Positions 15,806-57,390 of a stretch of 64,000 nt of DNA are shown one piece after another. The translations under genes and the position numbers were made by a program. The DNA lies in NCBI RefSeq assembly GCF_056712565.1, contig NZ_CM160072.1. The stretch is one strand, 5' to 3'. The first letter of the stretch is position 1. Every line of letters starts with the position of its first letter. Below the pieces are notes generated by a model, which was given only the letters and a program-made list of their open reading frames with translations, was not told the origin of the DNA and searched no databases.

Positions 15806-15979
15806 TCTCTGTAGTGATTAAATAAAAAATACTTCAGAGTGTACCTGCAAAGGTTCACTGCGAAGTTTTGCTCTTTAAAAATCTGGATCAAGCTGAAAAT
15901 TGAAACACTGAACAATGAAAGTTGTTCGTGAGTCTCTCAAATTTTCGCAACTCTGAAGTGAAACATCTTCGGGTTGTGA

Positions 15980-27374: not shown

Positions 27375-27451
27375 GGAGCGGTAGTTCAGTCGGTTAGAAT
27401 ACCTGCCTGTCACGCAGGGGGTCGCGGGTTCGAGTCCCGTCCGTTCCGCCA
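27375..27451 (+). tRNA. aspV: tRNA-Asp (GTC anticodon); island-associated tRNA locus
   Basis: Exact repeat of the aspU sequence; immediately followed by an AT-rich region and the accessory island. Confidence 0.95.
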
Positions 27452-28565: not shown

Positions 28566-28904
28566 TGAGGTTTTATACCAGACGTTTTAGTGGTACTTAG
28601 CAAGAAAGAGCATTTCTCTTTTCTATTTTACACTATGGAACAAGTCTGCTAATTAATTTTACATATGTCTTTTAGGAGTGGTAAAAACTTTCCTAAAGTT
28701 ATTTATTGTCCTCTCAACATATAAGCTGTAATTCGAGTTTTCGGTTGAACTGTCAAAAATACATCATATACATCTATAAAACAGCAGGTACGGTTAATTA
28801 AGAATTTTTATTCGTGATTAACCGTACTTTGTCATTTTATCCTATAATGTTAAATTGCCTTTTTAAAATATAACAATAATGCAGATGAAAGACTCCCTGG
28901 TAAC

Positions 28905-29384
28905 TTAGAAAATCCGTTCACTCCAAAGGCTGTATGCACTGGTTCCGGCGACGCTGTGCTCCCAATTGATGCTCTCATAGGTAAATGACACAGACTCTTC
29001 CGCCTGCCCTGGACTGTCGTTAATGGTATGGGGAACGGTAAGGCCGATGTTTGAGAGCCGGGCGTTAGCCAGTTTCAGCTTGTAGTACGGTTCATTAATT
29101 CCAAAGCGGTTGGTGCGGTAGAATACAAAATCACAGGTCAGACATTCATTCTCTGAAATGGCCTTGCCCAGCAGAGGGGAGGATTTGTCCACCGGTTTCG
29201 TGATGGTCAACTCCTGATGGTTGACATTCTGCGCACGGCTCAGACCATGGGACAGTGACGTCACCATGATCTGATCCTGATGTGCAATCTGGGCTTTGTT
29301 ACCGATGGACGGCATTGACGAGCATCCGGATGAAATCAGCCCCTGAAGTTCTCCGTTCAGTGTCAGATAGACGGGATTTGCCAT
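28905..29384 (-). CDS. hcp: Hcp-family T6SS tube protein (second hcp copy)
   Basis: 159-aa product from MANPVYLTLNGELQG... with AAGGAG RBS 8 nt upstream; Hcp-like N-terminus; the ORF-track start at 29405 is an extension. Confidence 0.8.
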   Translation of the reverse strand: MANPVYLTLNGELQGLISSGCSSMPSIGNKAQIAHQDQIMVTSLSHGLSRAQNVNHQELTITKPVDKSSPLLGKAISENECLTCDFVFYRTNRFGINEPYYKLKLANARLSNIGLTVPHTINDSPGQAEESVSFTYESINWEHSVAGTSAYSLWSERIF

Positions 29385-29401
29385 TGTTATTCTCCTTAAT
29401 C

Positions 29402-30760
29402 TCAATGAGTTGGATGGACAGGTTCGGTTCTGTTATCCGTTGCCATATCCTGTCCGGTATTTTTCAGCAGCAGCCAGCGGCTTAACAGCCCGTCCAGCCG
29501 TTCGTTGATCTCTTTTTCCAACGCCTGTGTGTCCTGCTTCTGTGTACGGGTCTCCTGGTACTGCGTCAGCAGGTACTCCAGTGGTGTTTCTTGATTCAGT
29601 AACCGTTCGGCCTGCCAGGTCACCGTTTTGATATACGATAGGGTGAAACCCTGTTTCTCCGTCTCCTTCTTCATCATCAAATCTGCAAAATCCCGCAAAT
29701 TCTGCCGCGCTTGTTGCCAGCCCTTCATCTGCGGACTGGCTTGCGCCCGGTTTCTCAGCGTGTTGCTCCACATCCTGCTGGCTTCCTGCTGTTGCAGGCT
29801 TTCCGGCCAGAGGGTGTCTGCGGTGCGCATCATCTGCATTCCGGTTTCCAGCGGCTGTAGTGGCGGGGCATTCAGAAGCTGTTGCAGGTACTGTTCATAT
29901 TCTTTCAGTACCGGGGATGCCAACCAGACGGTGGCGGCTCCCTGTGTGGTATCCCTGACCTGTGTAAGCTGCTGCTGCATCGGATACGCCTGCCACCACC
30001 AGAGTGCAGATGCGATAACGGCAGTACAGGCGGCACCGGCAACAAAACCTTTTACCGTGTCGCCCTGTTTTGCTTTGTCGGCGTTATCTGCCACACCGCG
30101 CACCCCCACCCGCATTTCCGGCAGGTCGGGTAGGGGGGGCATGGTTTCCGCTGTGGCGGAAGCCGTGCCTTCAGGCGCATAGACCAGCGTTCTGACCATG
30201 GTCTGTGCCGCCGTATCAGTACGGTTTCTGGGCTGCGGCTCAAACCGCTTGCGTGTGTTCTGCACAAAATAAAGCAGATTTTCCACGCGCGGCTGGCGCT
30301 TCAGTTCCACTTGCTGGAGTTTGTCGCAGATAAGCTGCAAAGCCCGTTCCGTGCGGTAGAGCAACGAAAGATCATTTTCGGAAAAGGAAACCTGCTGGCG
30401 CAGGATATTCCCGGTGCGGGTGTTGAACCAGTCCAGCATCTCAGTCCGCGCCGGACCACTCTGCGGCCAGAATTTATCCCATTCGTGGATGATCATCGCA
30501 GCCAGCAGTTCCGCGCCTTCACAGAACCCTGCCAGTCCCTGATTACGTGTACGTGCCAGCGTATAGTAGGTGGCGGTATGCAAATCCACCCCGTTGGCCT
30601 TAAAAATCGACAGCGCCAGCGATTCCACCAGTTTCCAGTTCAGCTCCGGCTGTGACGGGTGGTTAGCTTTGTTAATTTCTTCGCGGATGGCGCTGAACTC
30701 CGGCAGGGCGCGCGGATCGCTGCCGGTAACGATAGTTTGTGTCAGTGCGTAATTGCTCAT
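29402..30760 (-). CDS. ImpA-N-domain T6SS-associated protein (VasL/TssA-like)
   Basis: 452-aa product from MSNYALTQTIVTGSDPRALPEFSAIREEINK (ImpA N-terminal motif), predicted TM segment mid-protein; start inferred at the ATG 10 nt after the tssM stop. Confidence 0.6.
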   Translation of the reverse strand: MSNYALTQTIVTGSDPRALPEFSAIREEINKANHPSQPELNWKLVESLALSIFKANGVDLHTATYYTLARTRNQGLAGFCEGAELLAAMIIHEWDKFWPQSGPARTEMLDWFNTRTGNILRQQVSFSENDLSLLYRTERALQLICDKLQQVELKRQPRVENLLYFVQNTRKRFEPQPRNRTDTAAQTMVRTLVYAPEGTASATAETMPPLPDLPEMRVGVRGVADNADKAKQGDTVKGFVAGAACTAVIASALWWWQAYPMQQQLTQVRDTTQGAATVWLASPVLKEYEQYLQQLLNAPPLQPLETGMQMMRTADTLWPESLQQQEASRMWSNTLRNRAQASPQMKGWQQARQNLRDFADLMMKKETEKQGFTLSYIKTVTWQAERLLNQETPLEYLLTQYQETRTQKQDTQALEKEINERLDGLLSRWLLLKNTGQDMATDNRTEPVHPTH

Positions 30761-30770
30761 CACTATCCCC

Positions 30771-33700
30771 TTAATACAACGTATCCGGTAAACGGAACAG
30801 GCTGAACAGACCGCCGGTGAACGGGTTATCTTCGGTATCCACATGCACCTGGTAAACCATTGCGCCGCCGTCCACGTTAAAGCGCACGTTAAAGGTGTCA
30901 CTGGTCACATTGGTCAACTGGCCCGCGCCGAACAGGCGGAACTGCGCCCACGGTCCACTGAACGCGATACTGCGCGGTGCTCTGCCGCTGGTGCCAATCA
31001 GCGTCAGCTTGCTTTCATTGCCTTCACGCATGTTGTTCGGCCAGACCAGATGGGCGGTGTAGTTGCGTCCCTGGCTGTAGTCCACTAACTGGCCGTCCAG
31101 GTTAAGTACGCTGCGCCGCTTATTGCCGGAAAGCGATACGGTTTCCACGGCAAACTGTGCGCCCAGCCCGTTCTGCTGGCTGAAGAAGATGTCGCGGATT
31201 TTCTGCGCGGTATCCAGTTGCTGCCGGATATCTTCACGGATTAACACTCTGCCGTCGTCGCCAAAGGTCAGATCGTTTTCAAGGAACAGGCGCAGGTTGT
31301 TCTTGTAGAAATTGTCCAGAATGCCATCCGGTTTAAAGAAACGTTCAAACGAATCCAGTGAGGCATCCTGTGTGGCGCGCGGATTAAACGGATAGTTATC
31401 GGCAAGCTGCTCGTTGAAGGGTTTCACTACATTGTCGCGCCAGTCCACTTCCATGTAACGAACGGCTTCCACCATCACCACATGCCAGGCCTGATCCGCG
31501 AGCTTACCTACCCAGCGGTTAAGAGGCGCAGGCAGGGTTTTTGCCATCTGACGGGTGGCGAAGATTGGATCGCTGCTGTTTTGATCCAGCCGTAGCTGTA
31601 CTGCTTTCAGCGCCGATTTCCCCGGCACTGGCGAGTTCTGGATCGCCAGCAGGTAACGGTGCAGCTCGGTCAGTTGCTGGTACACGGCCTGTAGCGTACT
31701 CGCCTTGTCCTTTTGCTCCTCCAGTGCGCTGTTTTCCGGTGCGAACTCATGCCCCAGCCGGGATAACAGGCGGTAATCCATCTCATTTATCGCCGCTTCC
31801 CTCGCCTTATCATCCAGTTTGCCGGAGAGCGTCAGCGCGTGGGTATTATCGCGCAGCGCCGTCAGCGCACGCTGGAATGGCTGATCGCCGCTGATAATCT
31901 GCTCCAGCGCGTCGGTCAGCGCCGACATGGCCTCATAGTCACGGACGTTGAGGTTATCCATTCCGGCACGCCAGGTGGCGGTATAGTCACTGATGTACTG
32001 TTCGGTGATATGGCGCTGGATCTCTTCACGGTCGGCCTCGCTGTAGGCGACGCTTTGCGTCAGGTTCAGTACCCACGAATCCAGCGCGGTCAGCTCAACG
32101 AGGCCCTCACGCTGTTTGACAAAATAGCTTTGCAGTCCATAGCGGGTGAGGAACTGCGGGATCACCAGTTTTTCATCATTACCGGCGACGAACACGTTGT
32201 CGAAGGTGGGACCAACCTGGTCGCGCAAATTCAAATCGGCGGGCAACACGCTTAATGCTTTGGTGCGCAGGGTCTGGTAGACACGCTGGTATATGGGCAG
32301 CTTGCTCAGTTCCTGCTGCGCATTAATGATCGGTTTATCATAGGGGGTCCAGCGGCTGACAGCATCGCTGTCGCTGCTTTGGCGCTGCGCGTGCCAGTCG
32401 GTGTGCTCCAGCGCATAGTCCAGATGCACCATCAGTTGCGCCTGAATATCGCGCTGGCCGTGAAATTCATTGCTCCAGCGCCGTGCCATGTACTGTTTTA
32501 CCGCCTCGTTGTTGCGCCCACTTTTGTCTTCCATCATGCGCACTACGCGCAGCACAGCGAGCTTTTCTTCGCTCTCTGGCGGGGCAATGTTTAGATCCCG
32601 GATCAGGCCGTTCATTAACGAGGGGAGATAACGCTGCTCAAGAAGCTGAATGTAGGTTTGCTCCACATACGGCCCTACGCGGGCGCCCTGGTACAATCCC
32701 ATATCCGCCAGAAAACCGTGATCGCGATAATCACCATAGGCCAGGGTGGCATCGCGTACCGGGTTAAGCAATGGCAATTGCAGATTGCCGAATTCATCCG
32801 TTCCCTGCGGTGGTGGTACGTCCATAAAGGCTTTAGCTTGTGCCAGTACGTTAACGCCAGACTGCCAGTTCTGATTGTAATAATGGTGCCAGCTTCCGAC
32901 CATCAATGCCGCCAGTGCCGCGCCACAGGTGGAAAAGGCGGTCAGCCTGCGCCGGGAGCTGTTCAGCCAGACGCTGTTTTCACCCGCCAGGTTCGGCTCA
33001 GCCAGCAGGACTTCCGGGAAGAGGCGGCGAGTAAAATACGGCGTCGTCTCCACCAGAGGCCAGGTTGCCAGCGAGCTGTTACCCAGTCCGTACTGGCGGG
33101 CGGCGGACTGCGTGAAAATATCATCCACCTGGCCACGCTGTAGCGAGGATGTGAGCCAGACGCCACGCAGCATTACATCCATGTTCTCACCGTCCAGCAA
33201 TGCGGCGAGCAGTGCGGTGACGATTTCTCCTGTTCCCTGCATCTGACGGGAGAAGCTGAACACAGCGCTGCGGGGAGCAGCACCGGTTTGTGCGAGCACC
33301 AGATCCGACAGCGCCAGGTTCACCTGTTGTACCCACGTCTGCCAGAAAGCCCCCAGTTCGCTGCGCCAGCCGTCACTTTCATGGGCGCGGCGGGTAAATG
33401 TGACGCCGAGGATCGCATCGCGGTCTTTTTTATCCAGTGAATGGAACAGCGCGGCAAAGCCGTTCAGCAGATCCAGCCGTGTCAGCACCACGTAAACGGG
33501 CAGACGGCAGTGCAGGCTCTGACGGATCTCCTGAAGTTGCTGGCGCAAATTTTGTACCAGTGTCTCACGGCGGGATTTATCCGCCGTCAGCAGATCGGGA
33601 AGATCGAGCGTCAGGATAAGACCGTTGAGCGGCTGGCGAGCGCGCGTTTGCATCAGCCAGCCCAGCCAGTGTTCGCGCAGGCGGCGGCGGAGCAGATCAT

Positions 33701-34298
33701 CCCCGCCGGGAGTGGTCAGTACGCCGTCAACATCGAAAATTACCGCCTGGTTGCCCACTCGCGGTGTGATCAGCGGGTGGTATTCCACACCCCGGATGCT
33801 TTCCGGCGTGTAAACAATGTCAGACGGAAAGCCCTCGCGCAGCAGCGTGCTTTTGCCGCTACCCGCAGGACCAATGACCATATACCACGGCAACTGCCAC
33901 AGATAACGGCGGTTATCCAGATGGCGGCGCAGGCGCAGCAGCCAGTGATCCAGATATTGCTGCTGGCGGTGGAGTTCCACGGTCAACGGATCTTTTTCTT
34001 CCTCCCGCTGCTGTTTCTGCTGTTTTTCCAGCTTTTGCAGACGCTTCATCACCCGCCAGGTGAGCCAGACCAGAGCGATAAGTCCCCAGACGGCGGTCGC
34101 CAGCCAGCGGTTTGCCAGCGGAGCCAGCCAGTGCTGCTCATAGAGCGTCCATTTTGGACCCTGCCACCAGATCCACACCAGCAGAAAAATCCATGCCAGC
34201 GTCAGTAGCCAGGTGGCGGAAACTTTAAACCGCGGCATCGCTGGCCTGAGCGCAGATTTCAACGTGCTGAACAGTCGGGATGTGGGAAATTTGAACAC
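30771..34298 (-). CDS. tssM: T6SS membrane-complex protein TssM (IcmF)
   Basis: 1175-aa ORF with N-terminal TM segments and Walker A motif (GPAGSGKST), IcmF-like architecture. Confidence 0.9.
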   Translation of the reverse strand: MFKFPTSRLFSTLKSALRPAMPRFKVSATWLLTLAWIFLLVWIWWQGPKWTLYEQHWLAPLANRWLATAVWGLIALVWLTWRVMKRLQKLEKQQKQQREEEKDPLTVELHRQQQYLDHWLLRLRRHLDNRRYLWQLPWYMVIGPAGSGKSTLLREGFPSDIVYTPESIRGVEYHPLITPRVGNQAVIFDVDGVLTTPGGDDLLRRRLREHWLGWLMQTRARQPLNGLILTLDLPDLLTADKSRRETLVQNLRQQLQEIRQSLHCRLPVYVVLTRLDLLNGFAALFHSLDKKDRDAILGVTFTRRAHESDGWRSELGAFWQTWVQQVNLALSDLVLAQTGAAPRSAVFSFSRQMQGTGEIVTALLAALLDGENMDVMLRGVWLTSSLQRGQVDDIFTQSAARQYGLGNSSLATWPLVETTPYFTRRLFPEVLLAEPNLAGENSVWLNSSRRRLTAFSTCGAALAALMVGSWHHYYNQNWQSGVNVLAQAKAFMDVPPPQGTDEFGNLQLPLLNPVRDATLAYGDYRDHGFLADMGLYQGARVGPYVEQTYIQLLEQRYLPSLMNGLIRDLNIAPPESEEKLAVLRVVRMMEDKSGRNNEAVKQYMARRWSNEFHGQRDIQAQLMVHLDYALEHTDWHAQRQSSDSDAVSRWTPYDKPIINAQQELSKLPIYQRVYQTLRTKALSVLPADLNLRDQVGPTFDNVFVAGNDEKLVIPQFLTRYGLQSYFVKQREGLVELTALDSWVLNLTQSVAYSEADREEIQRHITEQYISDYTATWRAGMDNLNVRDYEAMSALTDALEQIISGDQPFQRALTALRDNTHALTLSGKLDDKAREAAINEMDYRLLSRLGHEFAPENSALEEQKDKASTLQAVYQQLTELHRYLLAIQNSPVPGKSALKAVQLRLDQNSSDPIFATRQMAKTLPAPLNRWVGKLADQAWHVVMVEAVRYMEVDWRDNVVKPFNEQLADNYPFNPRATQDASLDSFERFFKPDGILDNFYKNNLRLFLENDLTFGDDGRVLIREDIRQQLDTAQKIRDIFFSQQNGLGAQFAVETVSLSGNKRRSVLNLDGQLVDYSQGRNYTAHLVWPNNMREGNESKLTLIGTSGRAPRSIAFSGPWAQFRLFGAGQLTNVTSDTFNVRFNVDGGAMVYQVHVDTEDNPFTGGLFSLFRLPDTLY

Positions 34299-34317
34299 AG
34301 TAACTCCTTGTTATCTT

Positions 34318-35760
34318 TTACTGTTCTGCCGTGAGTTTTTGTTCCAGTGCTTTCAGCAGGGAAGGCTCCCATTCGGATAGCATCATGTGTAATCCTGTTC
34401 TGAAGAGCATCCGGTACTGCTGTTGTGCAAGCTGAACCATACCGGCCTCTTCCAGTAACTGCGCGCCGAAAAACTGGCGGTGAAACTGGTGGCGGGGATC
34501 ACCTTCGGGCAGGTTTTCCAGGTACCGCAGCGCGGCTTCCAGCCCGTTTTCATCGAAGCACGCCTTGGCCGCCTGTAATTCTTCATCGGTCTGTACAACC
34601 GGGACGGTCTGGTTGACTGAGCCGGATGATGCCAGCCACTGTTTCGTCTGTTCGGACACAAACGGAGTGCGGTCGTTAAACAACAGGTTGATCAGTGCGG
34701 GCAGGCGGGCCAGAAAATCGGTAACTTCATCACGGATAGCATCCGCCACCTGTTTATAACCGAGGCGCAGCGCGGTCTGTGCTGAGAGGTAATGACCGTC
34801 CAGCCAGTACGGGGCCAGCAGCAGGCTTTTTTCCACCTGCTGCCACAGCGCCATGTCGGCATTGTTCAGCCGCGCCAGGTAATCATCCATCATATCGACA
34901 GGGAAGGCTGCCAGTGGGGGCCGGCCATCGCTTTCTGCCTGCGGGGTACTGGTGATGGTTTGCCACAGCGCATGGCGGCGCAGTCGGTAACCCTGCGGTG
35001 ACTCCGGCTGGCGCTCACAGAGAATGGCGGCCACCTTTAGCAGGGTGTCGCGCCATGCTTTATCGTCGTGGTTTTCAACGGTGACCTGCGGGATTGGAGT
35101 GGCTGCAACAGGAGGCTGAGCGGCAACCGTGTGCGGTGACATATCCGGTACATATCCGGTCGTGGCCTGCGGCGCAATGGCGGCGCTTCGTGCAGATGAT
35201 GTCATTTCAGGCGCTACATCACGAAACGCGCGCTGAAACAGGGAAAATAAATCGTCTGTCGCCTTTGCCAGCTCAGACGCGTTGTGCGCCTGCCAGCACT
35301 GTGCCAGTTTTGCCAGCTCTCCCAGCAAAGCATCGCGCTGTATTGTCGCAGCATTCCCGGCAAAGTCCTGAACGGCAGACTCAAAGCGTTTTATCACCTG
35401 GGCGGCAAAGCGTTTTTTGTGGGCCATGTTCTGCGGTGCGGCGCATGTCCAGTAGTGCTCTGTATATTGTGCCAGCATCCTGGAGGCCAGCAGAATATCA
35501 CCGGCATGTTGCAGGGTACGCAGCAAGTGGGCCAGCAGGCGAAAATCTTTGGTTTCTGAGGCCAGAAGCATCAGGCCCCGGCGCTGAAGTTCCGGGATAT
35601 CAAGCTGGCTGTGCGCCAGTGAACCGAGCTTGACGATTTCGCTGTCGACAAACTCCCAGTCTGCATTGCCATCATCAAGCGCGGCGGACAGCTTATCTTC
35701 TGGCAGGTTTTCCAGCAGGTGTGCAAGCCATACATCGGGATTACGTAAGTCCATTGCCAT
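34318..35760 (-). CDS. tssA: T6SS protein TssA (ImpA family)
   Basis: 480-aa product from MAMDLRNPDVWLAHLLENLPEDKLS; start set at the ATG 5 nt after the upstream gene stop. Confidence 0.8.
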   Translation of the reverse strand: MAMDLRNPDVWLAHLLENLPEDKLSAALDDGNADWEFVDSEIVKLGSLAHSQLDIPELQRRGLMLLASETKDFRLLAHLLRTLQHAGDILLASRMLAQYTEHYWTCAAPQNMAHKKRFAAQVIKRFESAVQDFAGNAATIQRDALLGELAKLAQCWQAHNASELAKATDDLFSLFQRAFRDVAPEMTSSARSAAIAPQATTGYVPDMSPHTVAAQPPVAATPIPQVTVENHDDKAWRDTLLKVAAILCERQPESPQGYRLRRHALWQTITSTPQAESDGRPPLAAFPVDMMDDYLARLNNADMALWQQVEKSLLLAPYWLDGHYLSAQTALRLGYKQVADAIRDEVTDFLARLPALINLLFNDRTPFVSEQTKQWLASSGSVNQTVPVVQTDEELQAAKACFDENGLEAALRYLENLPEGDPRHQFHRQFFGAQLLEEAGMVQLAQQQYRMLFRTGLHMMLSEWEPSLLKALEQKLTAEQ

Positions 35761-35764
35761 ATTC

Positions 35765-36508
35765 TTATTCTCCCGCCCAGTGGCAGGCGTCGCGTAGCGG
35801 CGCAATAACCCGTGCCAGCCCGTCAATGTTAAAGGTCAGCTTTCCGGCGGCGTTGTCTGTGCCGGTATCCACCGTCAGCGTTTTTGCGCCGAACAGTTGC
35901 TTAATTTCATCGATACCGGATAACCCCCGGCTGGACTCCAGCAGGGTGCCGTTCTCGCGCACAAACCAGTGGCTGCGCAATGCCCGGCTGTCGGCATTCA
36001 GGGTGACGGCGATATCATGGACATCCAGAGGGTGCATCAGCGCCACCTGCATCCGGGTGATATTGTCCACGCAACTGAACATCAGCACCGGGCGTGGCGG
36101 AACATGGCCGATAGCCGGGGTGGTTATCACCACCGTCGGGCGTTCACCCGGTACTTGCGTTACCAGCAGCTCCGTGGTGTTGCCCTGGCGGCGTTTTTCC
36201 TGTTCTGTCGCGCGGGCCCAGGCTTCACCTTGGTAACGAGCTTTCACCAGTGCGGCACCACCAAAGCCAGCCTGTTCCGGCGCAAGAATGCGGTCATAAC
36301 AGTCAAGCCGCTCCAGCGCCGCCGTCTCCTGGCGGCAGGACTGCATGGCCTGTAACGTGGCTGTCGCATCCGGCGGTGTCGCTGTGGCGACAGCTACCGC
36401 CACACCGGCCACTGACGATGTTTCTGTGGGCGCGGCACTGGCGGGTAAGCCCGCCATCAGGCCCGCGATAAACCATCCTGTCTGCCGGAAAACGCACAAC
36501 CTGCTCAT
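35765..36508 (-). CDS. T6SS-associated secreted protein (VasI/TagO-like)
   Basis: 247-aa ORF with signal-peptide-like N-terminus, between clpV and tssA; family assignment from synteny and size, not a recognised motif. Confidence 0.45.
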   Translation of the reverse strand: MSRLCVFRQTGWFIAGLMAGLPASAAPTETSSVAGVAVAVATATPPDATATLQAMQSCRQETAALERLDCYDRILAPEQAGFGGAALVKARYQGEAWARATEQEKRRQGNTTELLVTQVPGERPTVVITTPAIGHVPPRPVLMFSCVDNITRMQVALMHPLDVHDIAVTLNADSRALRSHWFVRENGTLLESSRGLSGIDEIKQLFGAKTLTVDTGTDNAAGKLTFNIDGLARVIAPLRDACHWAGE

Positions 36509-39264: not shown

Positions 39265-39273
39265 AAGATGTCC

Positions 39274-48507: not shown

Positions 48508-49212
48508 AAAAATGTTCCCGTTCAGGCCATGAGCACAGCATTTTCGTACTGCATACAAATACCGACAATACCGTTTCAGTGGCAGTTAGATAATGTAACC
48601 TTCCTTCTGTTGTGATCGGTATTCTACTCATGAAATAAAACATTAAAAGAACTATTTATATTTTTGAAAGAGATGTATCCTTCATTATTAATACATAAGA
48701 GTTAAATCAATTTGGTATTTATAGACTTAGTGAATATGATTTTACGGCTAATAAAGTTACATAATGCATTGATTTATATGTGTTTATTAAGTTGATTAAT
48801 AAGTTTTATGTATGGTTTTATAAATAAATTAATTAATTGCTAGAAATACATCATAAGAAATTCCTTTAAGGAATATCTTAATTGCGTGCCGGAACGATTG
48901 TGAAGTAAGTGTTGTAATGATTGATTTTTGAAGAAATTGTAGGTTTTTATGGGGGTAAGGATACGTTATGGATAATTCTACTGTTGATGTTGATATATTT
49001 TTAGCTTATGTAATCGTGTTCTGAAATTGACTAAAAATATATTTAAACACCATAAAAGAGTTTTTCGGTAGGTGCTAATTACGTGTGCCTGTAACTCGAA
49101 TAAAGAAAAGGGTGTGGTTCCTGATGTGAGCCGCATCACACTCTAACCTGTCGGGGATTAACGACGGGTTGTTCGTAAAACAGCAGTTGATAATTTCACA
49201 AGGAGTTCATAA
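48508..49212. promoter_or_regulatory. AT-rich divergent control region between tssB (minus) and hcp (plus)
   Basis: ~700 bp of strongly AT-rich non-coding DNA between the two divergent T6SS transcription units. Confidence 0.5.
49125..49140. promoter_or_regulatory. Candidate CRP-type binding site upstream of hcp
   Basis: TGTGA-GCCGCA-TCACA: both pentameric half-sites with 6-bp spacer, centred ~80 bp upstream of the hcp ATG. Confidence 0.3.
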
Positions 49213-49731
49213 ATGCCAACCCCATGTTACATTTCAATTACAGGTCAGACCCAGGGGAACATCACTGCCGGTGCTTTCACCGCAGATTCTGTCGGCAATA
49301 TCTACGTGCAGGGACACGAAGATGAAATGCTGGTGCAGGAGTTTCTGCATAACGTTACTGTTCCAACCGATCCGCAGTCTGGTCAGCCTTCCGGGCAGCG
49401 TGCTCACAAACCGTTCATTTTCACCGTGGCGCTGAACAAAGCCGTTCCGCTGCTGTACAACGCGCTGGCCTCCGGTGAAATGCTGCCGAAAGTGGAGCTG
49501 CACTGGTGGCGTACCTCTGTTGAAGGCAAGCAGGAGCACTACTTCACCACACGTCTTACTGACGCGACGATTGTGGACATGAACCTGCATATGCCGCACT
49601 GCCAGGACCCTGCACAGCGTGAGTTTACGCAATTGCTCGCAGTATCACTGGCCTACCGTAAGGTTGAGTGGGAGCACATCAAATCCGGTACTTCTGGTGC
49701 CGATGACTGGCGTGCACCGCTGGAAGCATAA
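49213..49731 (+). CDS. hcp: T6SS tube protein Hcp (TssD)
   Basis: 172-aa ORF, Hcp-like, preceded by AAGGAG RBS. Confidence 0.9.
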   Translation: MPTPCYISITGQTQGNITAGAFTADSVGNIYVQGHEDEMLVQEFLHNVTVPTDPQSGQPSGQRAHKPFIFTVALNKAVPLLYNALASGEMLPKVELHWWRTSVEGKQEHYFTTRLTDATIVDMNLHMPHCQDPAQREFTQLLAVSLAYRKVEWEHIKSGTSGADDWRAPLEA

Positions 49732-49740
49732 ATCTGAGTC

Positions 49741-49777
49741 AACAACATCCTGCCTCCGTGCAGGATGTTGTTTTTGT
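49741..49777 (+). terminator. Intrinsic terminator/attenuator between hcp and vgrG
   Basis: AACAACATCCTGC-CTCCGT-GCAGGATGTTGTT perfect 13-bp stem followed by TTTTGT. Confidence 0.7.
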
Positions 49778-49951
49778 ACGTGTAAAAAATGAGTGTCAGT
49801 AAGGAGTTACGCTTTCATGAGGGAGATGGTGGATGCCGGAAACCCGGGCGGTAGCGTACCTGAAAATGTAAAGATGAGTGTAACGCTGCACTGGCACCCT
49901 TTGCTGCATGGTGGGAATCATTTGGTCCGTGAATGAATCAGGGAGGTCATT

Positions 49952-51934
49952 ATGTCCTTAAAAGGTCTTCGCTTTACGCTGGAGGTTGACGGCCAGGAGC
50001 CGGACACCTTTGCAGTGGTGAATTTCCGGTTAATCCAGAACCAGTCTTATCCGTTTGTGATGAGTGTGGATGTCGCCAGCGATTCTTTTATGCAGACGGC
50101 GGAGATGCTGCTGGAGAAGAACGCAACGCTGACTATCTGGCAGGGTGTCATCCCGCTGCGTTATGTCACCGGCGTGGTGGCGGGCTTTGGCATGCAGGAG
50201 AACAACGGCTGGCAGATGCGTTATCACCTGCGTATTGAGCCGCCGTTATGGCGGTGCGGGCTGCGGCGGAACTTCCGTATCTTCCAGCAGCAGGATATCC
50301 GGACGATATCGGCCACATTACTGAACGAGAACGGCGTCACAGAGTGGACGCCGCTGTTTTATGAGGACCATCCGGCGCGGGAGTTCTGTGTGCAGTACGG
50401 GGAGTCGGACCTGGCGTTTCTGGCGCGGCTGTGGGCGGAGGAGGGGATTTTCTTCTTTGAGCGGTTTGCGGCGGACAGTCCGGAGCAGAAGCTGACGCTG
50501 TGCGACGATGTGGCGGGGCTGTCACAGGCGGGGGAGCTTCCGTTTAACCCGGACACATCGGCAGGAGCGGAGACGGAGTGTGTCAGTATGTTCCGTTATG
50601 AGGCGCATGTCCGCCCGTCATCGGTGCAGAGCCAGGATTACACGTTTAAGGTGCCGGACTGGCCGGGGATGTATGAGCAGCAGGGTGAGAGCCTGAACGG
50701 ACAGCTTGAACAGTATGAAATATTTGATTATCCGGGAAGGTACAAGGATGAACAGCACGGCAAGGATTTCACGCTGTACCGGATGGAGAGCCTGCGCAGT
50801 GATGCGGAAAAGGCCACAGGGCAGAGTAATTCGCCGAAGCTGTGGCCGGGGACGTGGTTTACGCTGACGGGGCATCCGCAGAAGATGCTGAACCGTGAAT
50901 GGCAGGTGGTACAGAGCATTCTGTCAGGAGACCAGCCGCAGGCGCTTCACGGCAGCCAGGGGAGAGGAACCACGCTGGGAAATCAGTTAGAGGTGATACC
51001 GGCGGACCGGACGTGGCGTCCACGGCTGCAAAGCAAACCGAAGGTGGACGGGCCACAGAGCGCCATTGTCACCGGGCCTGCGGGAGAGGAAATCTTCTGT
51101 GATGAACATGGCCGGGTACGGGTGAAGTTTCACTGGGACCGTTATCACGGGATGACGGAGGAGAGTTCGTGCTGGGTGCGTGTGTCGCAGGCGTGGGCGG
51201 GGCCGGGATTTGGTAATCTGGCGATACCGCGGGTGGGCCAGGAGGTGATTGTTGATTTTCTGAACGGGGACCCGGACCAGCCGCTGGTCATGGGCCGGAC
51301 GTACCATGAGGACAACCGTTCGCCGGGGAGCCTGCCGGGGACGAAGACGCAGATGACGATACGGTCGAAGACCTATAAAGGAAGCGGCTTTAATGAACTG
51401 CGGTTTGAAGACGCCACGGGCGGTGAACAGGTCTATATCCACGCGCAGAAGAACATGGATACGGAGGTGCTGAATAATCGGACGACGGATGTGAAGGCTG
51501 ACCACACGGAGACCATTGGTAACGACCAGAAGATAACGGTGGGGTTGGGCCAGACGGTGAATGTGGGGAGCAAAAAGGAAGGTGGTCATGACCAGAAAGT
51601 GACGGTAGCGAACGATCAGCATCTCACGATAAAAAATGACCGGCACAAGGTTGTAAATAACAACCAGACAAGCAAGGTGACGGGAACTGATACCGAAGAA
51701 GTCGTCAAAAAACAGAGTATTAAAATAGGTGATAATTACGAACTGAAAGTTGAGCATGGTACAAATATCATATCTGGGGACAGTATTGAGCTAATTTGTG
51801 GGCAGGGAGAGAGCGGGACTTGTTCCATAAAACTGGAGAAAACAGGAAAGATAATAATACGGGGGACGGAGTTTCTATTTGAGGCTACCGGTCCTGTAGA
51901 TATTAAAGGAAAAGATATTCATCTGAACGGATAG
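49952..51934 (+). CDS. vgrG: T6SS spike protein VgrG (TssI)
   Basis: 660-aa ORF with gp27/gp5-like core; no long C-terminal effector extension; GGGAGG RBS. Confidence 0.9.
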   Translation: MSLKGLRFTLEVDGQEPDTFAVVNFRLIQNQSYPFVMSVDVASDSFMQTAEMLLEKNATLTIWQGVIPLRYVTGVVAGFGMQENNGWQMRYHLRIEPPLWRCGLRRNFRIFQQQDIRTISATLLNENGVTEWTPLFYEDHPAREFCVQYGESDLAFLARLWAEEGIFFFERFAADSPEQKLTLCDDVAGLSQAGELPFNPDTSAGAETECVSMFRYEAHVRPSSVQSQDYTFKVPDWPGMYEQQGESLNGQLEQYEIFDYPGRYKDEQHGKDFTLYRMESLRSDAEKATGQSNSPKLWPGTWFTLTGHPQKMLNREWQVVQSILSGDQPQALHGSQGRGTTLGNQLEVIPADRTWRPRLQSKPKVDGPQSAIVTGPAGEEIFCDEHGRVRVKFHWDRYHGMTEESSCWVRVSQAWAGPGFGNLAIPRVGQEVIVDFLNGDPDQPLVMGRTYHEDNRSPGSLPGTKTQMTIRSKTYKGSGFNELRFEDATGGEQVYIHAQKNMDTEVLNNRTTDVKADHTETIGNDQKITVGLGQTVNVGSKKEGGHDQKVTVANDQHLTIKNDRHKVVNNNQTSKVTGTDTEEVVKKQSIKIGDNYELKVEHGTNIISGDSIELICGQGESGTCSIKLEKTGKIIIRGTEFLFEATGPVDIKGKDIHLNG

Positions 51935-52040
51935 TGCAGGATATAAAACATGGTGATTGTATTTGCTTTATACGCCTGTGAATCACCATTTGTGATTGTT
52001 TAAATTAATCATAGCATGACTTATTCAGGAATCAATAAGC

Positions 52041-53087
52041 ATGATAGAAATGAAAAATAACACGCCATTTCCTTTGTTGTCATTTGAAAAATATGGTCGT
52101 TATGGTCTTTTGTTTGATGTTATTGCTATTAAAATGTCATTGCGAATTAAAAATGGATTTTATGCTGATCTTGCTGAGTTTCAAAAAGAATTGTCCATGT
52201 CTGATGAATACTATGGGGAGTCTGAAACAAGTAGTCTAAAATCTGAAACAGACTTAGTTCTTTGTAAAAGAAATACAGATATTCACGTGACAGGTAGTGC
52301 TCATGCCCCTTCAGGGGATAAGTCTCAGTGGAAGGCTTGTGTGAGGGTTAATAGTTTTTCTAAAGAACTGAGTTTATCTGGTGTCCGCTACTTACAATAT
52401 GAGCGAAATCGTTGGCAGATGAGCTTACCAGATAAAATTATTAATGTTCCTCTACGCTATGAGCTTGCTTACGGTGGTATTTGGCAACCAGATGGTATGG
52501 AGAAATTGGTTTTTTCAGCAAACCCTGTAGGTTGTGGATATTATCCTGATATTTCTCAACTTAATACAAGTTGTCAATATAAACTCCCACAAATAACCAG
52601 CTCTGCTTTGTCAGAAAACGCTACCATTTTTAATGGGGAATCTGACTTTTTTCAAGGTGTTGGCCCTGTATCTCGATGGTGGAAAAGTCGCCTCCAGTAT
52701 GCAGGAACCTACAATGAAGTATGGCGTGAAAAGCGCTATCCCTATTTGCCGGATGATTTTGATGAGCGGTTCTACAATAGTGCTCATCCGGATATGATAT
52801 ACACGGGGTTTCTCTCTGGCGATGAAAACATCTCTCTTGAAGGTTTTTTTAAATTTGAACAGGTTGTTAAGACAAAATTGCCAGGTATACGACCTGTACT
52901 TATATTAAAAACCAAGCATAATACATCACATATGTTCTTACCTGTTGCGGATACAATGGTTATCGATTTAAGTCGACAGGAAATATACCTTACCTGGAGA
53001 TTAACAATACCTGATTTTTTTGGAATGAAAGAAGGAGTGCTGAGTTGTATTATTCCTGAATGTATAGGGAAAAAATATTATGGGTAA
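52041..53087 (+). CDS. Putative DUF2169-family T6SS adaptor protein
   Basis: 348-aa low-GC ORF directly between vgrG and a DUF4150/PAAR-like effector, the canonical adaptor position; assignment by context and size. Confidence 0.55.
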   Translation: MIEMKNNTPFPLLSFEKYGRYGLLFDVIAIKMSLRIKNGFYADLAEFQKELSMSDEYYGESETSSLKSETDLVLCKRNTDIHVTGSAHAPSGDKSQWKACVRVNSFSKELSLSGVRYLQYERNRWQMSLPDKIINVPLRYELAYGGIWQPDGMEKLVFSANPVGCGYYPDISQLNTSCQYKLPQITSSALSENATIFNGESDFFQGVGPVSRWWKSRLQYAGTYNEVWREKRYPYLPDDFDERFYNSAHPDMIYTGFLSGDENISLEGFFKFEQVVKTKLPGIRPVLILKTKHNTSHMFLPVADTMVIDLSRQEIYLTWRLTIPDFFGMKEGVLSCIIPECIGKKYYG

Positions 53088-54519
53088 CTATCATATCGGG
53101 GATGGTGAATGTAGATTTAGAGTCGTGTGTTCTTCACCAGATGTATGTGAAGTAGGAGGTTACAAGGTTCCTTTTGACAGTTACCAGACTTTAGATAGTG
53201 AAAGACAGTACAGTTCAACGGTATGGGCGCGTGGATGCAGAGCTTTAAATGTTGGTTCAGTGATTGCTGGAACTCAAAGTAATGCCGGTAAAGGTGTCAT
53301 ATCCGGTACATCTCAAGGAACGGGTGACTGTGTTATTTTAACGGGAAGTCCGACTGTAACAATAGAAGGGAAACCTGTTGCTTATCATGGTTCAGTTGTT
53401 GGGATTAATAACCACAACTGCCTTGGTAAATTGTATACCAAAATAAAATCACCAATGATTTCTGTCATTGATAGAACTTTTAATTATGAAAGGACTGCTG
53501 AAGTAATACACGATTTACTGCTTCTGAAGGATCTCCTCTCTGTTGGTAATATTTTTGACGGAGATATTTCACCTGAGGTTAAAAATGATTTATTTCAAAT
53601 AAAAGATCCTGACCAATCATGGGGGGAGTTTTTTTCAATAAAGAATATCAGAGAATCTCTCAGGAATGGTATTGAAGGAGATAAATCTCAGATCAGAGAA
53701 TGGTTTGGAGAGAACACACTTACTCAAATGGGGAATGGAGCAATCACCACTTTACATGGTGTGGCGGATTTAGCCTTAGTTACATTCGATGCTCTGTTAG
53801 ATACGGCAACGGCAACGGTTGCTTGCCCGATAGGCGAAGATGGGTTATGTGAACAGGCAAATATAAATTTAAATGAAAAAGAACAGGCTTTATTTAATAT
53901 TAGTAATTCATTGATAAATGGGCAAGCATGGGATGCACTTAAAAAAATGATAATGGATACAAATAATGGTGATCAGATTGCTCTGGTGCATTTTGCCAGC
54001 TTTTTATGGGGCTTTATGATACCCGCAAAAATACCAGAAGAAAATATCTCTGGGAAAGTATTTGTAGAGCCAGTAGTTTTAGAAGGTGGTGCTGGTGGCA
54101 ATTGGACAGTATTTGATGAGGTTTTAGATTCAAATGTAATAAAGCAATTGACTTTAACAGGCTGTGGAGCGGCCTGTGGGGAAATGTTGCTTAGGGATAG
54201 GTATATTTTTGTCACGCAAAATGTAATTGGAACAGAATTAACATCTATGACGTCGCTGGCAAACAAGCTTAATAAATTTGATGTCGGCTGGGAAGGGAAT
54301 GCAGTGAGCGAATCTAGTTTATATGCCCTCAGTAATACTGGTTCATGGGGAGCAATGATGTGGGATTCTGGAAGTAAAGTAGGGCATTGGGTACTTGTTA
54401 AGGGTGTTGATGATGCTGGGAATGTGATAATATATGATCCATATCAAGGGAGTCGATATCTGATGACTGAACAGGAATTTAAGGAGGTATGGAATGGGCA
54501 TAGTGTTTACAAACCATAA
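53080..54519 (+). CDS. DUF4150/PAAR-like T6SS effector with C-terminal papain-like cysteine-peptidase toxin domain
   Basis: 479-aa ORF; N-terminus carries DUF4150 motifs (SPDVCEVGG, SGTSQGTGD, GSPTVTIEGKPVAYHGS...NNHN); C-terminal ~130 aa has a Cys/His/Asp arrangement (GCGAACGEM ... GHWVLVKG ... IYDP); start overlaps the upstream gene by 8 nt. Confidence 0.75.
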   Translation: MGNYHIGDGECRFRVVCSSPDVCEVGGYKVPFDSYQTLDSERQYSSTVWARGCRALNVGSVIAGTQSNAGKGVISGTSQGTGDCVILTGSPTVTIEGKPVAYHGSVVGINNHNCLGKLYTKIKSPMISVIDRTFNYERTAEVIHDLLLLKDLLSVGNIFDGDISPEVKNDLFQIKDPDQSWGEFFSIKNIRESLRNGIEGDKSQIREWFGENTLTQMGNGAITTLHGVADLALVTFDALLDTATATVACPIGEDGLCEQANINLNEKEQALFNISNSLINGQAWDALKKMIMDTNNGDQIALVHFASFLWGFMIPAKIPEENISGKVFVEPVVLEGGAGGNWTVFDEVLDSNVIKQLTLTGCGAACGEMLLRDRYIFVTQNVIGTELTSMTSLANKLNKFDVGWEGNAVSESSLYALSNTGSWGAMMWDSGSKVGHWVLVKGVDDAGNVIIYDPYQGSRYLMTEQEFKEVWNGHSVYKP

Positions 54520-54784
54520 TATTGATTTGTTATCGGTTGAATTTGATGAGATTACAAAAAATTGTAATTACACTTTTAGTGTAGATGGAGAGACGGCTAT
54601 CTTTACTGCTAGAATATCAATAATAAGAAATATAAAGGGAATTAAATATAGCGAAGAACTTGATAAATTTATAATGTCAATAATGCCATTGCAGCCTAAA
54701 GTATCAAAAATTTTGGGAGGTGTTACTTGGGATTGTATTTGTGGTAAGGAAGTTGGATTTCCTGTGAGATTAATTGGTAAGTGA
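54494..54784 (+). CDS. Putative cognate immunity protein
   Basis: 96-aa ORF overlapping the effector 3' end by 26 nt, same strand, low GC; no signal peptide. Confidence 0.5.
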   Translation: MGIVFTNHNIDLLSVEFDEITKNCNYTFSVDGETAIFTARISIIRNIKGIKYSEELDKFIMSIMPLQPKVSKILGGVTWDCICGKEVGFPVRLIGK

Positions 54785-55041
54785 AGGGTGGTGAGGTATT
54801 TCTATATTTTTTTCGTGAAAGTCTTTAAAACTGAAATTATCTTGTTGGGAGCCCAAGGTGAGATCATAAAACGTATTATTTTATAAATATTGTTATGCAG
54901 GGAAAGGTCAAGTAATGCTGCTTTTTTGTACTAAATAATTCGCATTTTATGTTCAATAATTGAGGTGTTCCTTATTACCTAAAGCTGTTTTTCATTGCTT
55001 ATACATGATCAAATACTCATTGCCTAATTAAGGGGGACAAA

Positions 55042-55920
55042 ATGGAACTTAAAAAATTGATGGAACATATTTCTATTATTCCCGATTACAGGCAAGCCTG
55101 GAAAGTGGAACATAAATTGCCAGATATTCTATCTGTTAACTATTTGCGCCGTTATTTCTGGTGCATAATGCTGGGAAGATATAGAGGATTTGGGGAAACA
55201 CATCTCGATTTTTTGAAGTGATATGGTGATTTTGAAAATGGTATTCCTGTTCACGATATCATTGCCAGAGTTGTATCCTGTATCAGTCCTGCAAAATTTC
55301 ATGAGTGCTTTATTAACTGGATGCGTGACTGCCATTCCTCAGATGATAAAGATGTCATTGCAATTGATGGAAAAACGCTTCGGCACTCTTATGACAAGAG
55401 TCGCCGCAAGGGAGCGATTTATGTCATTAAAATCCGTCTTCATATTATTTGCGATGTCCCTGATGAACTTATTGATTTCACGTTTGAATGGAAAGAGCTG
55501 AAGAAATTATGCATGGCAGTCTCCTTTCGTTCAATAATAACAGAACAAAAGAAAGAGCCAGAAATGACGGACAGATATTATAGCATTTCTGCTGATTTAA
55601 CCGCAGAGAAGTTCGCCACAGCGAACCGAAATCACTGGTACGTGGAGAATAAGCTGCACTGGCATCTGGACGTGGTAATGAATAAAGACGACTGCAAAAT
55701 AAGAAGAGGAAATGCAGCAGAATTATTTTCAGGGATACGGAAGATCGCTATTAATATTTTAACGAAAGATAAGATACTCAAGGCAGGGGCAAGATGTAAG
55801 ATGTGAAAAGCAGCTGCGGACAGAGACTACCTCGCGTCAGTCCTTGCGGGGGCGGGCTTTCGTATTCTTGCTCTGCAAGGGATGATAAAAAGTGCAACTT
55901 TATTCCACGCAGCTATTTAG
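55042..55920 (+). mobile_element. Decayed ISAs1-family (H-repeat-associated) transposase remnant
   Basis: Fragments in several frames match an H-repeat/ISAs1 transposase: [26 protein letters not shown]..., [12 protein letters not shown]...[40 protein letters not shown], then C-terminal [21 protein letters not shown]...[31 protein letters not shown]; frameshifts plus an internal deletion of ~150 codons. Confidence 0.7.
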
Positions 55921-56034
55921 ACAGCGTACAGTAAACAAACGAAAGTTGTTATTTCAATGGTCAGGGCAAGAGCATGAAGTGTTTACTACACACTATGCTC
56001 TTGTCCTGGAGTCAGGTCTTGTTTGGAGGGATAA

Positions 56035-56538
56035 ATGGTAGATATTGTCGAGGCCGATAAAACGGATATTTATTTCATTCAGGAGAGTGTTTATGGCAAA
56101 ATCGGGTTGCCAGCTTTTGGTAATACAATAGGACCATCCGCACAGCAAGTTGTTAAAAAGGTATTCGCTGTCGTTAAAGAACGAGATAAGACACATGCAA
56201 AACAGAGATTATTGTTGGAATATAATGGTAACAAACTCTGGATGAATGCTATTGATGGCAGTGAAGCTATCCTACCAACAGAATTTTCTAAGCGATACGA
56301 ACTTTCATTATTCAATACTACTAATTTTGGAGAAGATCCTTTTCCTGATGTTAATTTATATAATAATATGAAATCAAGTTTTTTTGTAAGGTTTGGTGGA
56401 ACATCCCATCCCGAGGCTTGGGCTATTTATAATGCAAGTACGAAAGAGGTTAAATATATAGAAACTGCAAGAGAAATTGATAAAATATTCAGTGATTTTA
56501 ACTTGAGTGGTACATTGCCAATTCACATTGGTCAATGA
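56035..56538 (+). CDS. Hypothetical protein (orphan, low GC)
   Basis: 167-aa ORF with GGAGGG RBS, no signal peptide, AT-rich codon usage; no motif recognised. Confidence 0.5.
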   Translation: MVDIVEADKTDIYFIQESVYGKIGLPAFGNTIGPSAQQVVKKVFAVVKERDKTHAKQRLLLEYNGNKLWMNAIDGSEAILPTEFSKRYELSLFNTTNFGEDPFPDVNLYNNMKSSFFVRFGGTSHPEAWAIYNASTKEVKYIETAREIDKIFSDFNLSGTLPIHIGQ

Positions 56539-56607
56539 TTTTTTAAATTGTGTGATTAAATAATTGAACATTAATGATGATTTATAGCATCATTATTATT
56601 CTATAAC

Positions 56608-57120
56608 ATGAATAAACGGATTGAATGTGTTATGTTAAAAATGAGTTTATACGTAATAATATTGTTATTTTCCCTTCAGTTTAGTGCAGCCATTACTGGC
56701 AAGGAAAGTGAGGTTGTTTCACCATTATTAATGGATGTTAATCCTTCACTAACAATGGAAAATATTTCTGAATTATCCACATCATCGGAACCATCGCAAC
56801 AGGGGGTATTTCCTGTAATATGTACTCGACTTCATCCTGGCTCCGTAATGAAACGTCAGTTATTAACCGGCTGGGGGCCTGTTTTTATAATTGGTGATGA
56901 TCCTTTTTCTCTGCGCTGGATGAGTGAACATCTGGAGATCCTTAAATCGCTAAATGCCCTTGGTTTGGTTGTTAATGTTGAATCAGTAGAACGAATGGAG
57001 GTATTACAGCAGCGGGCTGATGGGTTATTGTTATTGCCAGTTATCTGCGATAATTTTGTGCAAGCTCTGCAATTAAATGCTTATCCGGTATTAATCACAG
57101 AGATGGAAATATCACAATGA
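56608..57120 (+). CDS. Hypothetical secreted protein (orphan, low GC)
   Basis: 170-aa ORF with predicted N-terminal signal peptide (MSLYVIILLFSLQFSAA); no motif recognised. Confidence 0.5.
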   Translation: MNKRIECVMLKMSLYVIILLFSLQFSAAITGKESEVVSPLLMDVNPSLTMENISELSTSSEPSQQGVFPVICTRLHPGSVMKRQLLTGWGPVFIIGDDPFSLRWMSEHLEILKSLNALGLVVNVESVERMEVLQQRADGLLLLPVICDNFVQALQLNAYPVLITEMEISQ

Positions 57121-57145
57121 TTAATAACATAATTACTGCTAATAA

Positions 57146-57390
57146 TATGGTGATTTTGAAAATGGTAATCCTGTTCACGACACCATAATCAGAGTTATGT
57201 CCTGTATCCGTTCAGTAAAATTTCACGAATGCTTTATTAACCGGATGCGTGAATGTCATTCTTCAGACGACATAGACGTCATTGCGATTGATGGAAAAGC
57301 ACTTCCACACTCCTGTGATAAAAGTCGTCGCAGGAGAGCGGGCTTTCGTAGTCTTCCCCGACTCTCCCCGGCCCTAAACACAACCCCCAC
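57146..57390 (+). mobile_element. Second ISAs1-family transposase fragment (yafF-like)
   Basis: Encodes [66 protein letters not shown], a diverged direct repeat (~85% identity by eye) of 55213-55410; abuts the yafV 3' end. Confidence 0.6.

Follow-up and report, generated by a model that had tools for sequence, protein, structure and literature searches.

Does a genomic block that contains every core gene of a type VI secretion system (T6SS) also encode a system that can fire? This question is raised by a locus in the window, i.e. the whole stretch of 64,000 nucleotides of contig NZ_CM160072.1 analyzed here, for which a preliminary description had proposed a complete and fixed T6SS island at positions 28566-57390. 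Taking all results together, it is highly probable that the block is the APEC O1-type T6SS-2 of Escherichia coli at the aspV-yafV locus, with a tssL gene that was inactivated by a template switch within a quasipalindrome.

The proposed location next to a tRNA-Asp gene was borne out, since aspV lies at 27375-27451 and the block is bounded by yafT and yafV. In the comparison with K-12, homology ends at position 28564 of the window and restarts at 57323, which is in good agreement with the limits given initially, and the alignment shows that the block is absent from K-12, consistent with its presumed accessory status. However, high divergence already begins about 60 bp past aspV, beyond the terminator, and includes yafT (71-91% nucleotide and 81% protein identity to K-12). 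From this we conclude that the evolutionary left border is located at about 27510 rather than at 28566. The features at this end are:

27375..27451, plus strand: aspV, tRNA-Asp(GUC); the terminator after aspV is 100% conserved to about 27510, with divergence from K-12 thereafter
27780..28565, plus strand: yafT, encoding a lipoprotein without a Pfam family, which co-diverges with the island

At the opposite end, the border had been described as eroded into IS remnants, and degenerate ISAs1 copies were indeed found there:

54897..55864, plus strand: degenerate ISAs1 copy 1, frameshifted and internally deleted; K-12 yafF matches 55587-55864
56035..56538, plus strand: orf167, hypothetical protein without a family match
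56632..57120, plus strand: "integrating conjugative element" (ICE) protein of the PFL_4695 family, 162 aa, assigned by family match
57141..57375 (end approximate), plus strand: degenerate ISAs1 copy 2, in which an internal 200-bp segment is fused to the 3' end

Searches in PADLOC, NCBIfam and Pfam returned no match for either orf167 or YafT, and the PFL_4695 ICE family as the sole match for the 162-aa protein.

Between these borders, the genes for all 13 core components (TssA-M) were found within a single locus. HMM searches recovered all 13 core families as well as TagH, VasI and a VasL/ImpA_N protein, and the gene order and strands initially given for both transcription units were reproduced. 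The NCBIfam equivalog models of TssA, B, C, D, E, F, G, H, I, J, K and M scored far above their curated cut-offs, with the TssD family being represented by two Hcp genes, while TssL was recovered by the DotU/TssL domain model; TagH and VasI also matched NCBIfam models, and a 452-aa protein was found to carry ImpA_N and VasL domains (Pfam). The minus-strand unit and the adjacent intergenic region comprise:

28905..29384, minus strand: hcp (Hcp2A, TssD), closes the unit
29402..30760, minus strand: VasL-like accessory protein with ImpA_N and VasL domains
30771..34238, minus strand: tssM, IcmF-like membrane-complex subunit
34318..35760, minus strand: tssA, with P281 in the window versus T281 in the closest genome
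35765..36508, minus strand: vasI, accessory gene (NCBIfam)
36505..39264, minus strand: tssH/clpV, AAA+ ATPase for sheath recycling
39274..40026, minus strand: tssL (DotU family), pseudogene with an in-frame TGA at codon 44
40040..41386, minus strand: tssK, baseplate
41389..41913, minus strand: tssJ, outer-membrane lipoprotein
41910..43190, minus strand: tagH, FHA-domain accessory protein
43207..44256, minus strand: tssG, baseplate
44220..46061, minus strand: tssF, baseplate
46067..46492, minus strand: tssE, baseplate
46497..47981, minus strand: tssC, large sheath subunit
48004..48507, minus strand: tssB, small sheath subunit, opens the unit
48508..49212, no strand: AT-rich divergent intergenic region (positions 48001-49000 have 38.5% GC)

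The operon from tssB to hcp2A would thus provide the machine, consisting of the sheath (TssBC), the baseplate (TssEFGK), the membrane complex (TssJLM), the cap TssA and the ATPase ClpV, together with TagH, VasI and VasL. The intergenic region between tssB and hcp2B is presumed to harbor the promoter and an H-NS-silenced control region (PMC5874247). A scan of this region for consensus sigma-70 sites gave 3 sites versus 3.9 expected, i.e. no enrichment, and is therefore uninformative. The reading frames of the 12 core genes other than tssL are intact. The claim of a complete T6SS consequently holds with respect to gene content, but not functionally, since tssL is a pseudogene in the window.

The earlier description had also proposed a vgrG-linked adaptor, effector and immunity cargo on the plus strand, and these three components could be identified as a DUF2169 protein, Cpe1 and Cpi1:

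49213..49731, plus strand: hcp (Hcp2B), opens the cargo operon
49952..51934, plus strand: vgrG, TssI spike (NCBIfam)
52041..53087, plus strand: DUF2169 adaptor/chaperone (Pfam)
53080..54519, plus strand: cpe1 (alias tsaP), combining a PAAR-like N-terminus (residues 15-115) with a toxin domain of the papain-like cysteine protease type (residues 337-479, C362)
54494..54784, plus strand: cpi1, immunity gene, 96 aa, with the interface residues I47, M61, M64 and K72

The adaptor encoded between vgrG and the PAAR-like effector matches DUF2169 with a Pfam E-value of 7.8e-72, and the effector matches Tox-PAAR-like and Peptidase_C39 in Pfam. It matches PDB 9l5u with 100% identity over residues 337-479 and contains the TsaP peptide WDALKKMIMDT, and cpe1 and cpi1 are also the names that PGAP assigns to the effector and immunity genes. 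The Cpe1/Cpi1 (TsaP) pair has been characterized (PLoS Biol 2025; PMC12136450); both the structure and the target of the effector are known, and experiments in ATCC 11775 demonstrated that a toxin domain identical to that of Cpe1 is delivered by the T6SS and cleaves GyrB and ParE. All catalytic, exosite and interface residues named in that study are present in the window, both in Cpe1 (C362, L387, M390, A408, M426, W428, V434) and in Cpi1, which is encoded directly 3' of cpe1, and no difference was detected at the sequence level. The divergent operon hcp2B-vgrG-DUF2169-cpe1-cpi1 would accordingly supply tube, spike and cargo: judging from the published work on identical proteins, the PAAR-like Cpe1 would be carried on VgrG with the aid of DUF2169 and injected into rival bacteria, where it would cut GyrB and ParE, while Cpi1 would shield the producer and H-NS would silence the locus. 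Compared to the published pair, however, delivery is presumably blocked in the window by the tssL lesion.

The island itself is already known, being the well-described T6SS-2 of ST95-type ExPEC, and adds nothing new. Over 5 kb, the window is identical, with the exception of the tssL event, to 60 or more complete genomes, among them the ST95 references UTI89, APEC O1 and NU14, and NZ_CP098206 shares 99.98% identity with it across 35 kb. The window has the locus and gene order in common with the APEC O1-type T6SS-2 (ExPEC "T6SS2": APEC O1, UTI89, RS218, ExPEC XM, ATCC 11775), as well as the two-operon layout with hcp2A, hcp2B and the Cpe1/Cpi1 cargo, but differs from it by the premature stop in tssL; the T6SS2 layout and its repression by H-NS have been described (PMC5874247). 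The ECC-1470-type T6SS-2 (e.g. SCEC020023, and the scar in K-12) likewise shares the insertion site, the tss order and ISAs1 beside yafV. However, it shows only about 70-80% nucleotide and 54-94% protein identity to the window (TssB 55%, VgrG 54%, ClpV 90%), carries ykfM and a full-length yafU at its left end, and has an Rhs effector in place of DUF2169-Cpe1. A more distant relative is the large T6SS cluster of Vibrio cholerae (VipA/VipB ... VasK, VasL), whose VipB and VCA0115 are the best solved relatives of TssC and TssL, respectively (TssC: 783 bits for VipB, with the organisms ranking next at 650 and 354 bits). The order B-C-E-F-G-FHA-J-K-L-ClpV-VasI-TssA-TssM-VasL corresponds to that in V. 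cholerae. The block thus encodes a V. cholerae-like contractile injection system, which may belong to subtype i1, a label based on best-hit similarity and on synteny. In contrast to V. cholerae, the window lacks a gene for the sigma-54 activator VasH between clpV and vasI and encodes a different cargo.

The island is not a fixed insertion, since only 548 of 5426 complete genomes (about 10%) carry at least 80% of the APEC O1-type variant, and most of the others, numbering thousands, have a sister variant with about 75-80% nucleotide identity at the same site. In the literature, T6SS-2 at tRNA-Asp has indeed been described as occurring in two variants that exclude each other (PMC8715443). The yafU pseudogene of K-12 corresponds to the last 112 aa encoded by a 304-aa gene flanking the sister variant, and yafF of K-12 is an ISAs1 remnant. 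From these two remnants we conclude that K-12 lost a T6SS by deletion and does not represent an empty site. K-12 ykfM and yafU were also considered as remnants of hcp and vasL of the window, which was ruled out, as tblastn gave no match to the window and both are genes of the sister variant. A recent integration of the block as a classical tRNA-targeting mobile genomic island would fit its position next to aspV and its atypical G+C content (core 53-61%, cargo 35-40%, flanks about 50%), but is very improbable. As already noted in the preliminary description, no integrase is present, be it among the ORFs of the window or in the genes that RefSeq annotates at the 99.98% identical locus. The distal border likewise lacks a direct repeat of the tRNA 3' end, which, allowing up to 3 mismatches, matched only the two tRNA-Asp genes themselves. 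Moreover, divergence sets in only after the conserved aspV terminator, most of the species has one or the other of two old allelic variants at the locus, and K-12 exhibits a deletion scar instead of an empty att site.

The stop in tssL is an in-frame TGA at codon 44 (plus-strand positions 39895-39897). Intact tssL reads GTGATGCGT at this site, and the lesion replaces the wild-type ACGCATCA (8 nt) by TCAGG (5 nt), which amounts to a change of 7 positions with a net loss of 3 nt. Reading the stop as a sequencing error was ruled out, because the allele recurs in many independent assemblies. Hairpin-forming sequences can trouble some sequencing chemistries, yet 7 independent complete genomes share exactly this allele, and unrelated runs contributed at least 24 more contigs with it, so that an artefact of sequencing or assembly of the window is hardly conceivable. 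Overall, truncated tssL products were found on 31 and 129 contigs, compared to at least 1000 for the wild type.

Based on sequence, the system with the broken tssL is probably a dead weapon: without TssL, the membrane complex would not form and the system would not fire, while the cpi1 immunity gene would be kept. It could be argued that the island is nevertheless complete and functional, with the stop being rendered harmless by readthrough or by re-initiation at Met48. The first ATG past the stop (39883-39885) follows only 9 nt downstream of the TGA and would yield a protein of 203 aa lacking the N-terminal 48 residues, which still matches positions 23-211 of the 211 positions of the DotU model and could hypothetically be active; in addition, the stop allele persists across many isolates. 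We consider this improbable, as the lost residues 17-48 are conserved in comparison with V. cholerae TssL (PDB 4v3i), and as the Met48 ATG has no upstream Shine-Dalgarno sequence and is located at the tip of an mRNA hairpin of -37 kcal/mol. Furthermore, PGAP labels the same allele as "internal stop" or pseudogene in other genomes, and in one other carrier of the stop, MS20657, tssA and tagH are annotated as shorter genes, possibly but not necessarily because of additional lesions. Between 27452 and 62000, Rfam gave no matches at gathering level, including any recoding element at the TGA.

How the inactivation arose is suggested by its sequence context, a near-perfect inverted repeat made by the mutation itself:

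39865..39907, no strand: 20-nt inverted repeat with arms at 39865-39884 and 39888-39907

In the stop allele the repeat extends over 20 nt at 95% complementarity versus 8 nt in the wild type, which has only the 8 outer pairs and a few inner pairs. The predicted hairpins are correspondingly more stable in the stop allele, both for DNA (-24 versus -12 kcal/mol) and for RNA (-37 versus -21.5 kcal/mol). Since the 5 inserted nucleotides exactly complement the opposite arm of the imperfect inverted repeat, the change in tssL was likely caused by a template switch inside the quasipalindrome during replication. Mutations of the quasipalindrome type are expected to become more frequent in exonuclease I/VII mutants or with 5-azacytidine.

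The same lesion was found on two haplotypes, with about 45 differences between them over 7 kb. Class I includes the window (stop) and L001 (wild type), class II includes L006 (stop) and L019 (wild type), and all four combinations of alleles and flanking SNPs, located 43 bp away on one side and 940 bp on the other, exist. The stop allele is rare among complete RefSeq genomes (7 of 547), where it resides on a haplotype other than that of the window. As each of the two haplotypes also has a wild-type sister, a recurrent origin is probable, which suggests that the same change arose repeatedly at a mutational hot spot, as far as can be judged from sequence. Alternatively, the stop allele might have arisen once and moved between haplotypes by short-patch homologous recombination. 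E. coli recombines frequently, the island is mosaic between strains, and near the site only one SNP (39852), on one side, discriminates the haplotypes. Nevertheless, this is rather unlikely, because one end of the patch would have to fall into the 43-bp interval from 39852 to 39895 and its other end before 40838, and because the wild-type quasipalindrome has a built-in template that regenerates exactly the same sequence. Going beyond repeated origin, the repeat in tssL may be a natural template-switch hot spot that repeatedly and irreversibly disarms ExPEC lineages at appreciable frequency while leaving Cpi1 intact, a proposition that we regard as evenly balanced.

The practical lesson is that having all 13 genes does not equal a functional system, and the tssL lesion would escape surveys of E. 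coli T6SS that score HMM hits or gene presence/absence. If the hot spot is real, "disarmed but immune" variants would be produced at appreciable frequency. Recurrence of the lesion via the built-in quasipalindrome would represent a clean natural case of sequence-programmed loss of an interbacterial weapon, and would make the tssL allele a useful marker to record in population genomic studies of ExPEC. No link between quasipalindromes and T6SS was found in the literature searched. Quasipalindrome template-switch mutations described in E. coli (PMC7202029) resemble the change in tssL in that a multi-base complement change converts an imperfect repeat into a near-perfect one; whereas those cases were observed in a lacZ reporter, the tssL lesion is a natural allele of a T6SS gene.

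The window belongs to the E. coli chromosome and extends from the rrnH operon and aspU via gloB-yafS-rnhA-dnaQ-aspV to yafV-ivy-fadE, with two divergent gene sets located between yafT and yafV. The features referred to below are:

27780-28565, yafT
39274-40026, minus strand, tssL
53080-54519, cpe1, effector gene
54494-54784, cpi1, immunity gene
54897-55864, degenerate ISAs1 copy 1, right border
57141 to ~57375, degenerate ISAs1 copy 2, right border
57391-58161, yafV

NCBIfam equivalog models, all scoring far above the curated cut-offs in both gene sets, recovered TssB, TssC, TssE, TssF, TssG, TagH, TssJ, TssK, TssL (DotU), TssH/ClpV, VasI, TssA, TssM, a TssA-N-like protein and Hcp in this order on the minus strand, and Hcp followed by VgrG at the start of the plus-strand set. 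According to Pfam, the protein previously termed ImpA-like consists of ImpA_N and VasL domains, and a DUF2169 gene lies directly 3' of vgrG. From these assignments we conclude that the gene list, order and coordinates of the preliminary description are correct. The T6SS which it proposed is indeed present, and its interpretation holds in part; its designation as complete was overstated, since tssL carries a premature TGA, the remaining core genes and cpi1 being intact. Base composition of the block is atypical, with a G+C content of 53-61% in the tss core and 35-40% in the cargo compared to ~50% in the flanks. Rfam matches outside the block, naRNA4 (a REP-derived nucleoid-associated RNA; 62104-62181, downstream of fadE) and StyR-44 in the rrn spacer (15873-15972), are ordinary E. 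coli features.

This T6SS is already known in detail. In the literature the cluster is named ExPEC T6SS2, with two separate operons, one being vipA2...hcp2A and the other, repressed by H-NS, hcp2B-vgrG2-DUF2169-effector-immunity (PMC5874247), and T6SS-2 occurs as two mutually exclusive variants, APEC O1-type and ECC-1470-type, at a common tRNA-Asp site (PMC8715443); the window carries the former. The best solved relatives of TssC and TssL are V. cholerae VipB and VCA0115, which is compatible with a V. cholerae-like subtype. Matches of equal score to 5 kb around tssL were obtained in at least 60 complete genomes, including the ST95 reference strains UTI89, APEC O1, NU14, IMT5155 and ExPEC XM, and each of these genomes differs from the window over the 5 kb solely by one clustered event. 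The closest relative, NZ_CP098206, is 100% identical over the 24.4-kb core and 99.98% identical over the 35-kb locus. Only two differences were found in these 35 kb, a non-synonymous TssA change at 34920 (P281 in the window, T281 in NZ_CP098206) and a cluster at 39895-39900 within tssL.

The wild-type tssL coding strand reads ...GGC ATG GTG ATG CGT CTG TCC ACT ATG AAC AGT CAG GCC ATG CC..., and that of the window ...GGC ATG GCC TGA CTG TCC ACT ATG AAC AGT CAG GCC ATG CC..., which turns codon 44 into TGA (plus-strand 39895-39897). The five new bases, CCTGA, stand in place of TGATGCGT and exactly complement TCAGG in the opposite arm, so that an imperfect inverted repeat becomes one of 20 nt with 95% complementarity and a 3-nt loop, and the hairpin changes from -12 to -24 kcal/mol in DNA and from -21.5 to -37.3 kcal/mol in mRNA. 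This footprint is that of a textbook quasipalindrome template-switch mutation, from which we infer that the change probably arose by template switching. The N-terminal segment removed by the stop (…LRGNSLNPMIDAATPLLGMVMRLST) is conserved in V. cholerae TssL, and the next ATG after the TGA is located at the tip of the new hairpin and has no Shine-Dalgarno sequence in front of it. These features point to a loss of TssL, without which the TssJLM membrane complex would be lost as well and the system would not fire. It is this hairpin-templated, apparently recurrent tssL null allele that is worth keeping.

The same stop allele is marked "internal stop" by PGAP in 7 of 547 complete genomes, and 31 contigs on record contain exactly the 203-aa ORF that remains in the window and 129 a one-residue variant thereof (wild-type 251-aa TssL: at least 1000), which rules out a sequencing artefact as its source. 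A haplotype table of 16 loci over 7 kb revealed two classes separated by ~45 differing sites. In class I, the stop is found in the window and in ten contigs from metagenomes or isolates, and the wild-type sequence in one locus (L001); class II includes A13, MS20657 and N17 with the stop and strain 1105 as wild type, the latter differing from A13 over the 7 kb only by one SNP and the event itself. Since each class occurs with and without the stop, the event and the flanking SNPs at 39852 (43 bp away) and 40838 occur in all four combinations, which can be explained either by independent recurrence or by a short conversion patch. A patch which moved the stop between haplotypes would have to be shorter than 1 kb and to end on one side inside the 43-bp interval; we consider it clearly the less probable explanation and favour independent recurrence, because the template is built into the wild-type tssL sequence. 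The quasipalindrome is absent from the sister T6SS-2 variant, and none of the papers in the library searched links quasipalindromes to T6SS.

Annotations of other genomes with this T6SS-2 variant indicate further lesions: in strain 1105, tssM has an internal stop and tssF is frameshifted (L019 1-1394, 11382-13189), and in MS20657 tssA and tagH are shorter (L005 10578-11915, 18068-19297). Decay of the locus may be common, although these lesions, read from annotation, are possibly sequencing errors.

In the 479-aa protein encoded 3' of DUF2169, residues 15-115 form a Tox-PAAR-like domain and residues 352-474 a Peptidase_C39-like domain. The protein is 100% identical to PDB 9l5u over residues 337-479 and counts the StbD and CdiA cysteine-peptidase toxins among its relatives. 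It contains every published Cpe1 residue (C362, L387, M390, A408, M426, W428 and V434) and the TsaP peptide WDALKKMIMDT, and the 96-aa protein downstream has the published I47, M61, M64 and K72 (numbering according to PMC12136450). By sequence, the cargo protein is thus identified as Cpe1, alias TsaP; recent PGAP annotation names the two genes cpe1 and cpi1.

Homology to K-12 stops at 28564 and resumes at 57323, so that the island borders proposed previously correspond to the indel relative to K-12. Identity to K-12 already falls from 97-99% to 71-91% ~60 bp after aspV, just behind a perfectly conserved terminator, and yafT shows only 81% protein identity, which places the diverged module at ~27510 to ~57323. 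K-12 (L002 4258-5379) keeps ykfM, the last 112 yafU codons at 100% identity and the ISAs1 stub yafF, and its yafU corresponds to the C-terminal 112 aa of a 304-aa gene flanking the ECC-1470-type T6SS-2 (L007 10004-11407), where the order is aspV-yafT-ykfM-yafU(304 aa)-hcp-...-vgrG-Rhs-immunity-ISAs1-yafV. From these remnants we conclude that K-12 lost the sister variant by deletion and that its locus represents a scar, not an ancestral empty site. Protein identity between this variant and the window (28905-51934) is very uneven, ranging from 54% (VgrG), 55% (TssB) and 60% (TssF) to 90% (ClpV) and 94% (Hcp2B), a pattern that suggests mosaicism through recombination and not an old, uniform divergence.

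As the preliminary description had reported, neither an integrase nor a tRNA-end repeat was found at the locus, and the block is not a classical mobile island. At its right border, the two degenerate ISAs1 copies flank a 167-aa ORF and a protein of the PFL_4695 "integrating conjugative element" family (35% G+C). The Cpe1 cargo and this border occur together in 294 of 5426 complete genomes, and the border module also adjoins yafV in ECO_1_S (L020), where it follows an intact ISEc1 and a cargo of another type, VgrG-DUF4123.
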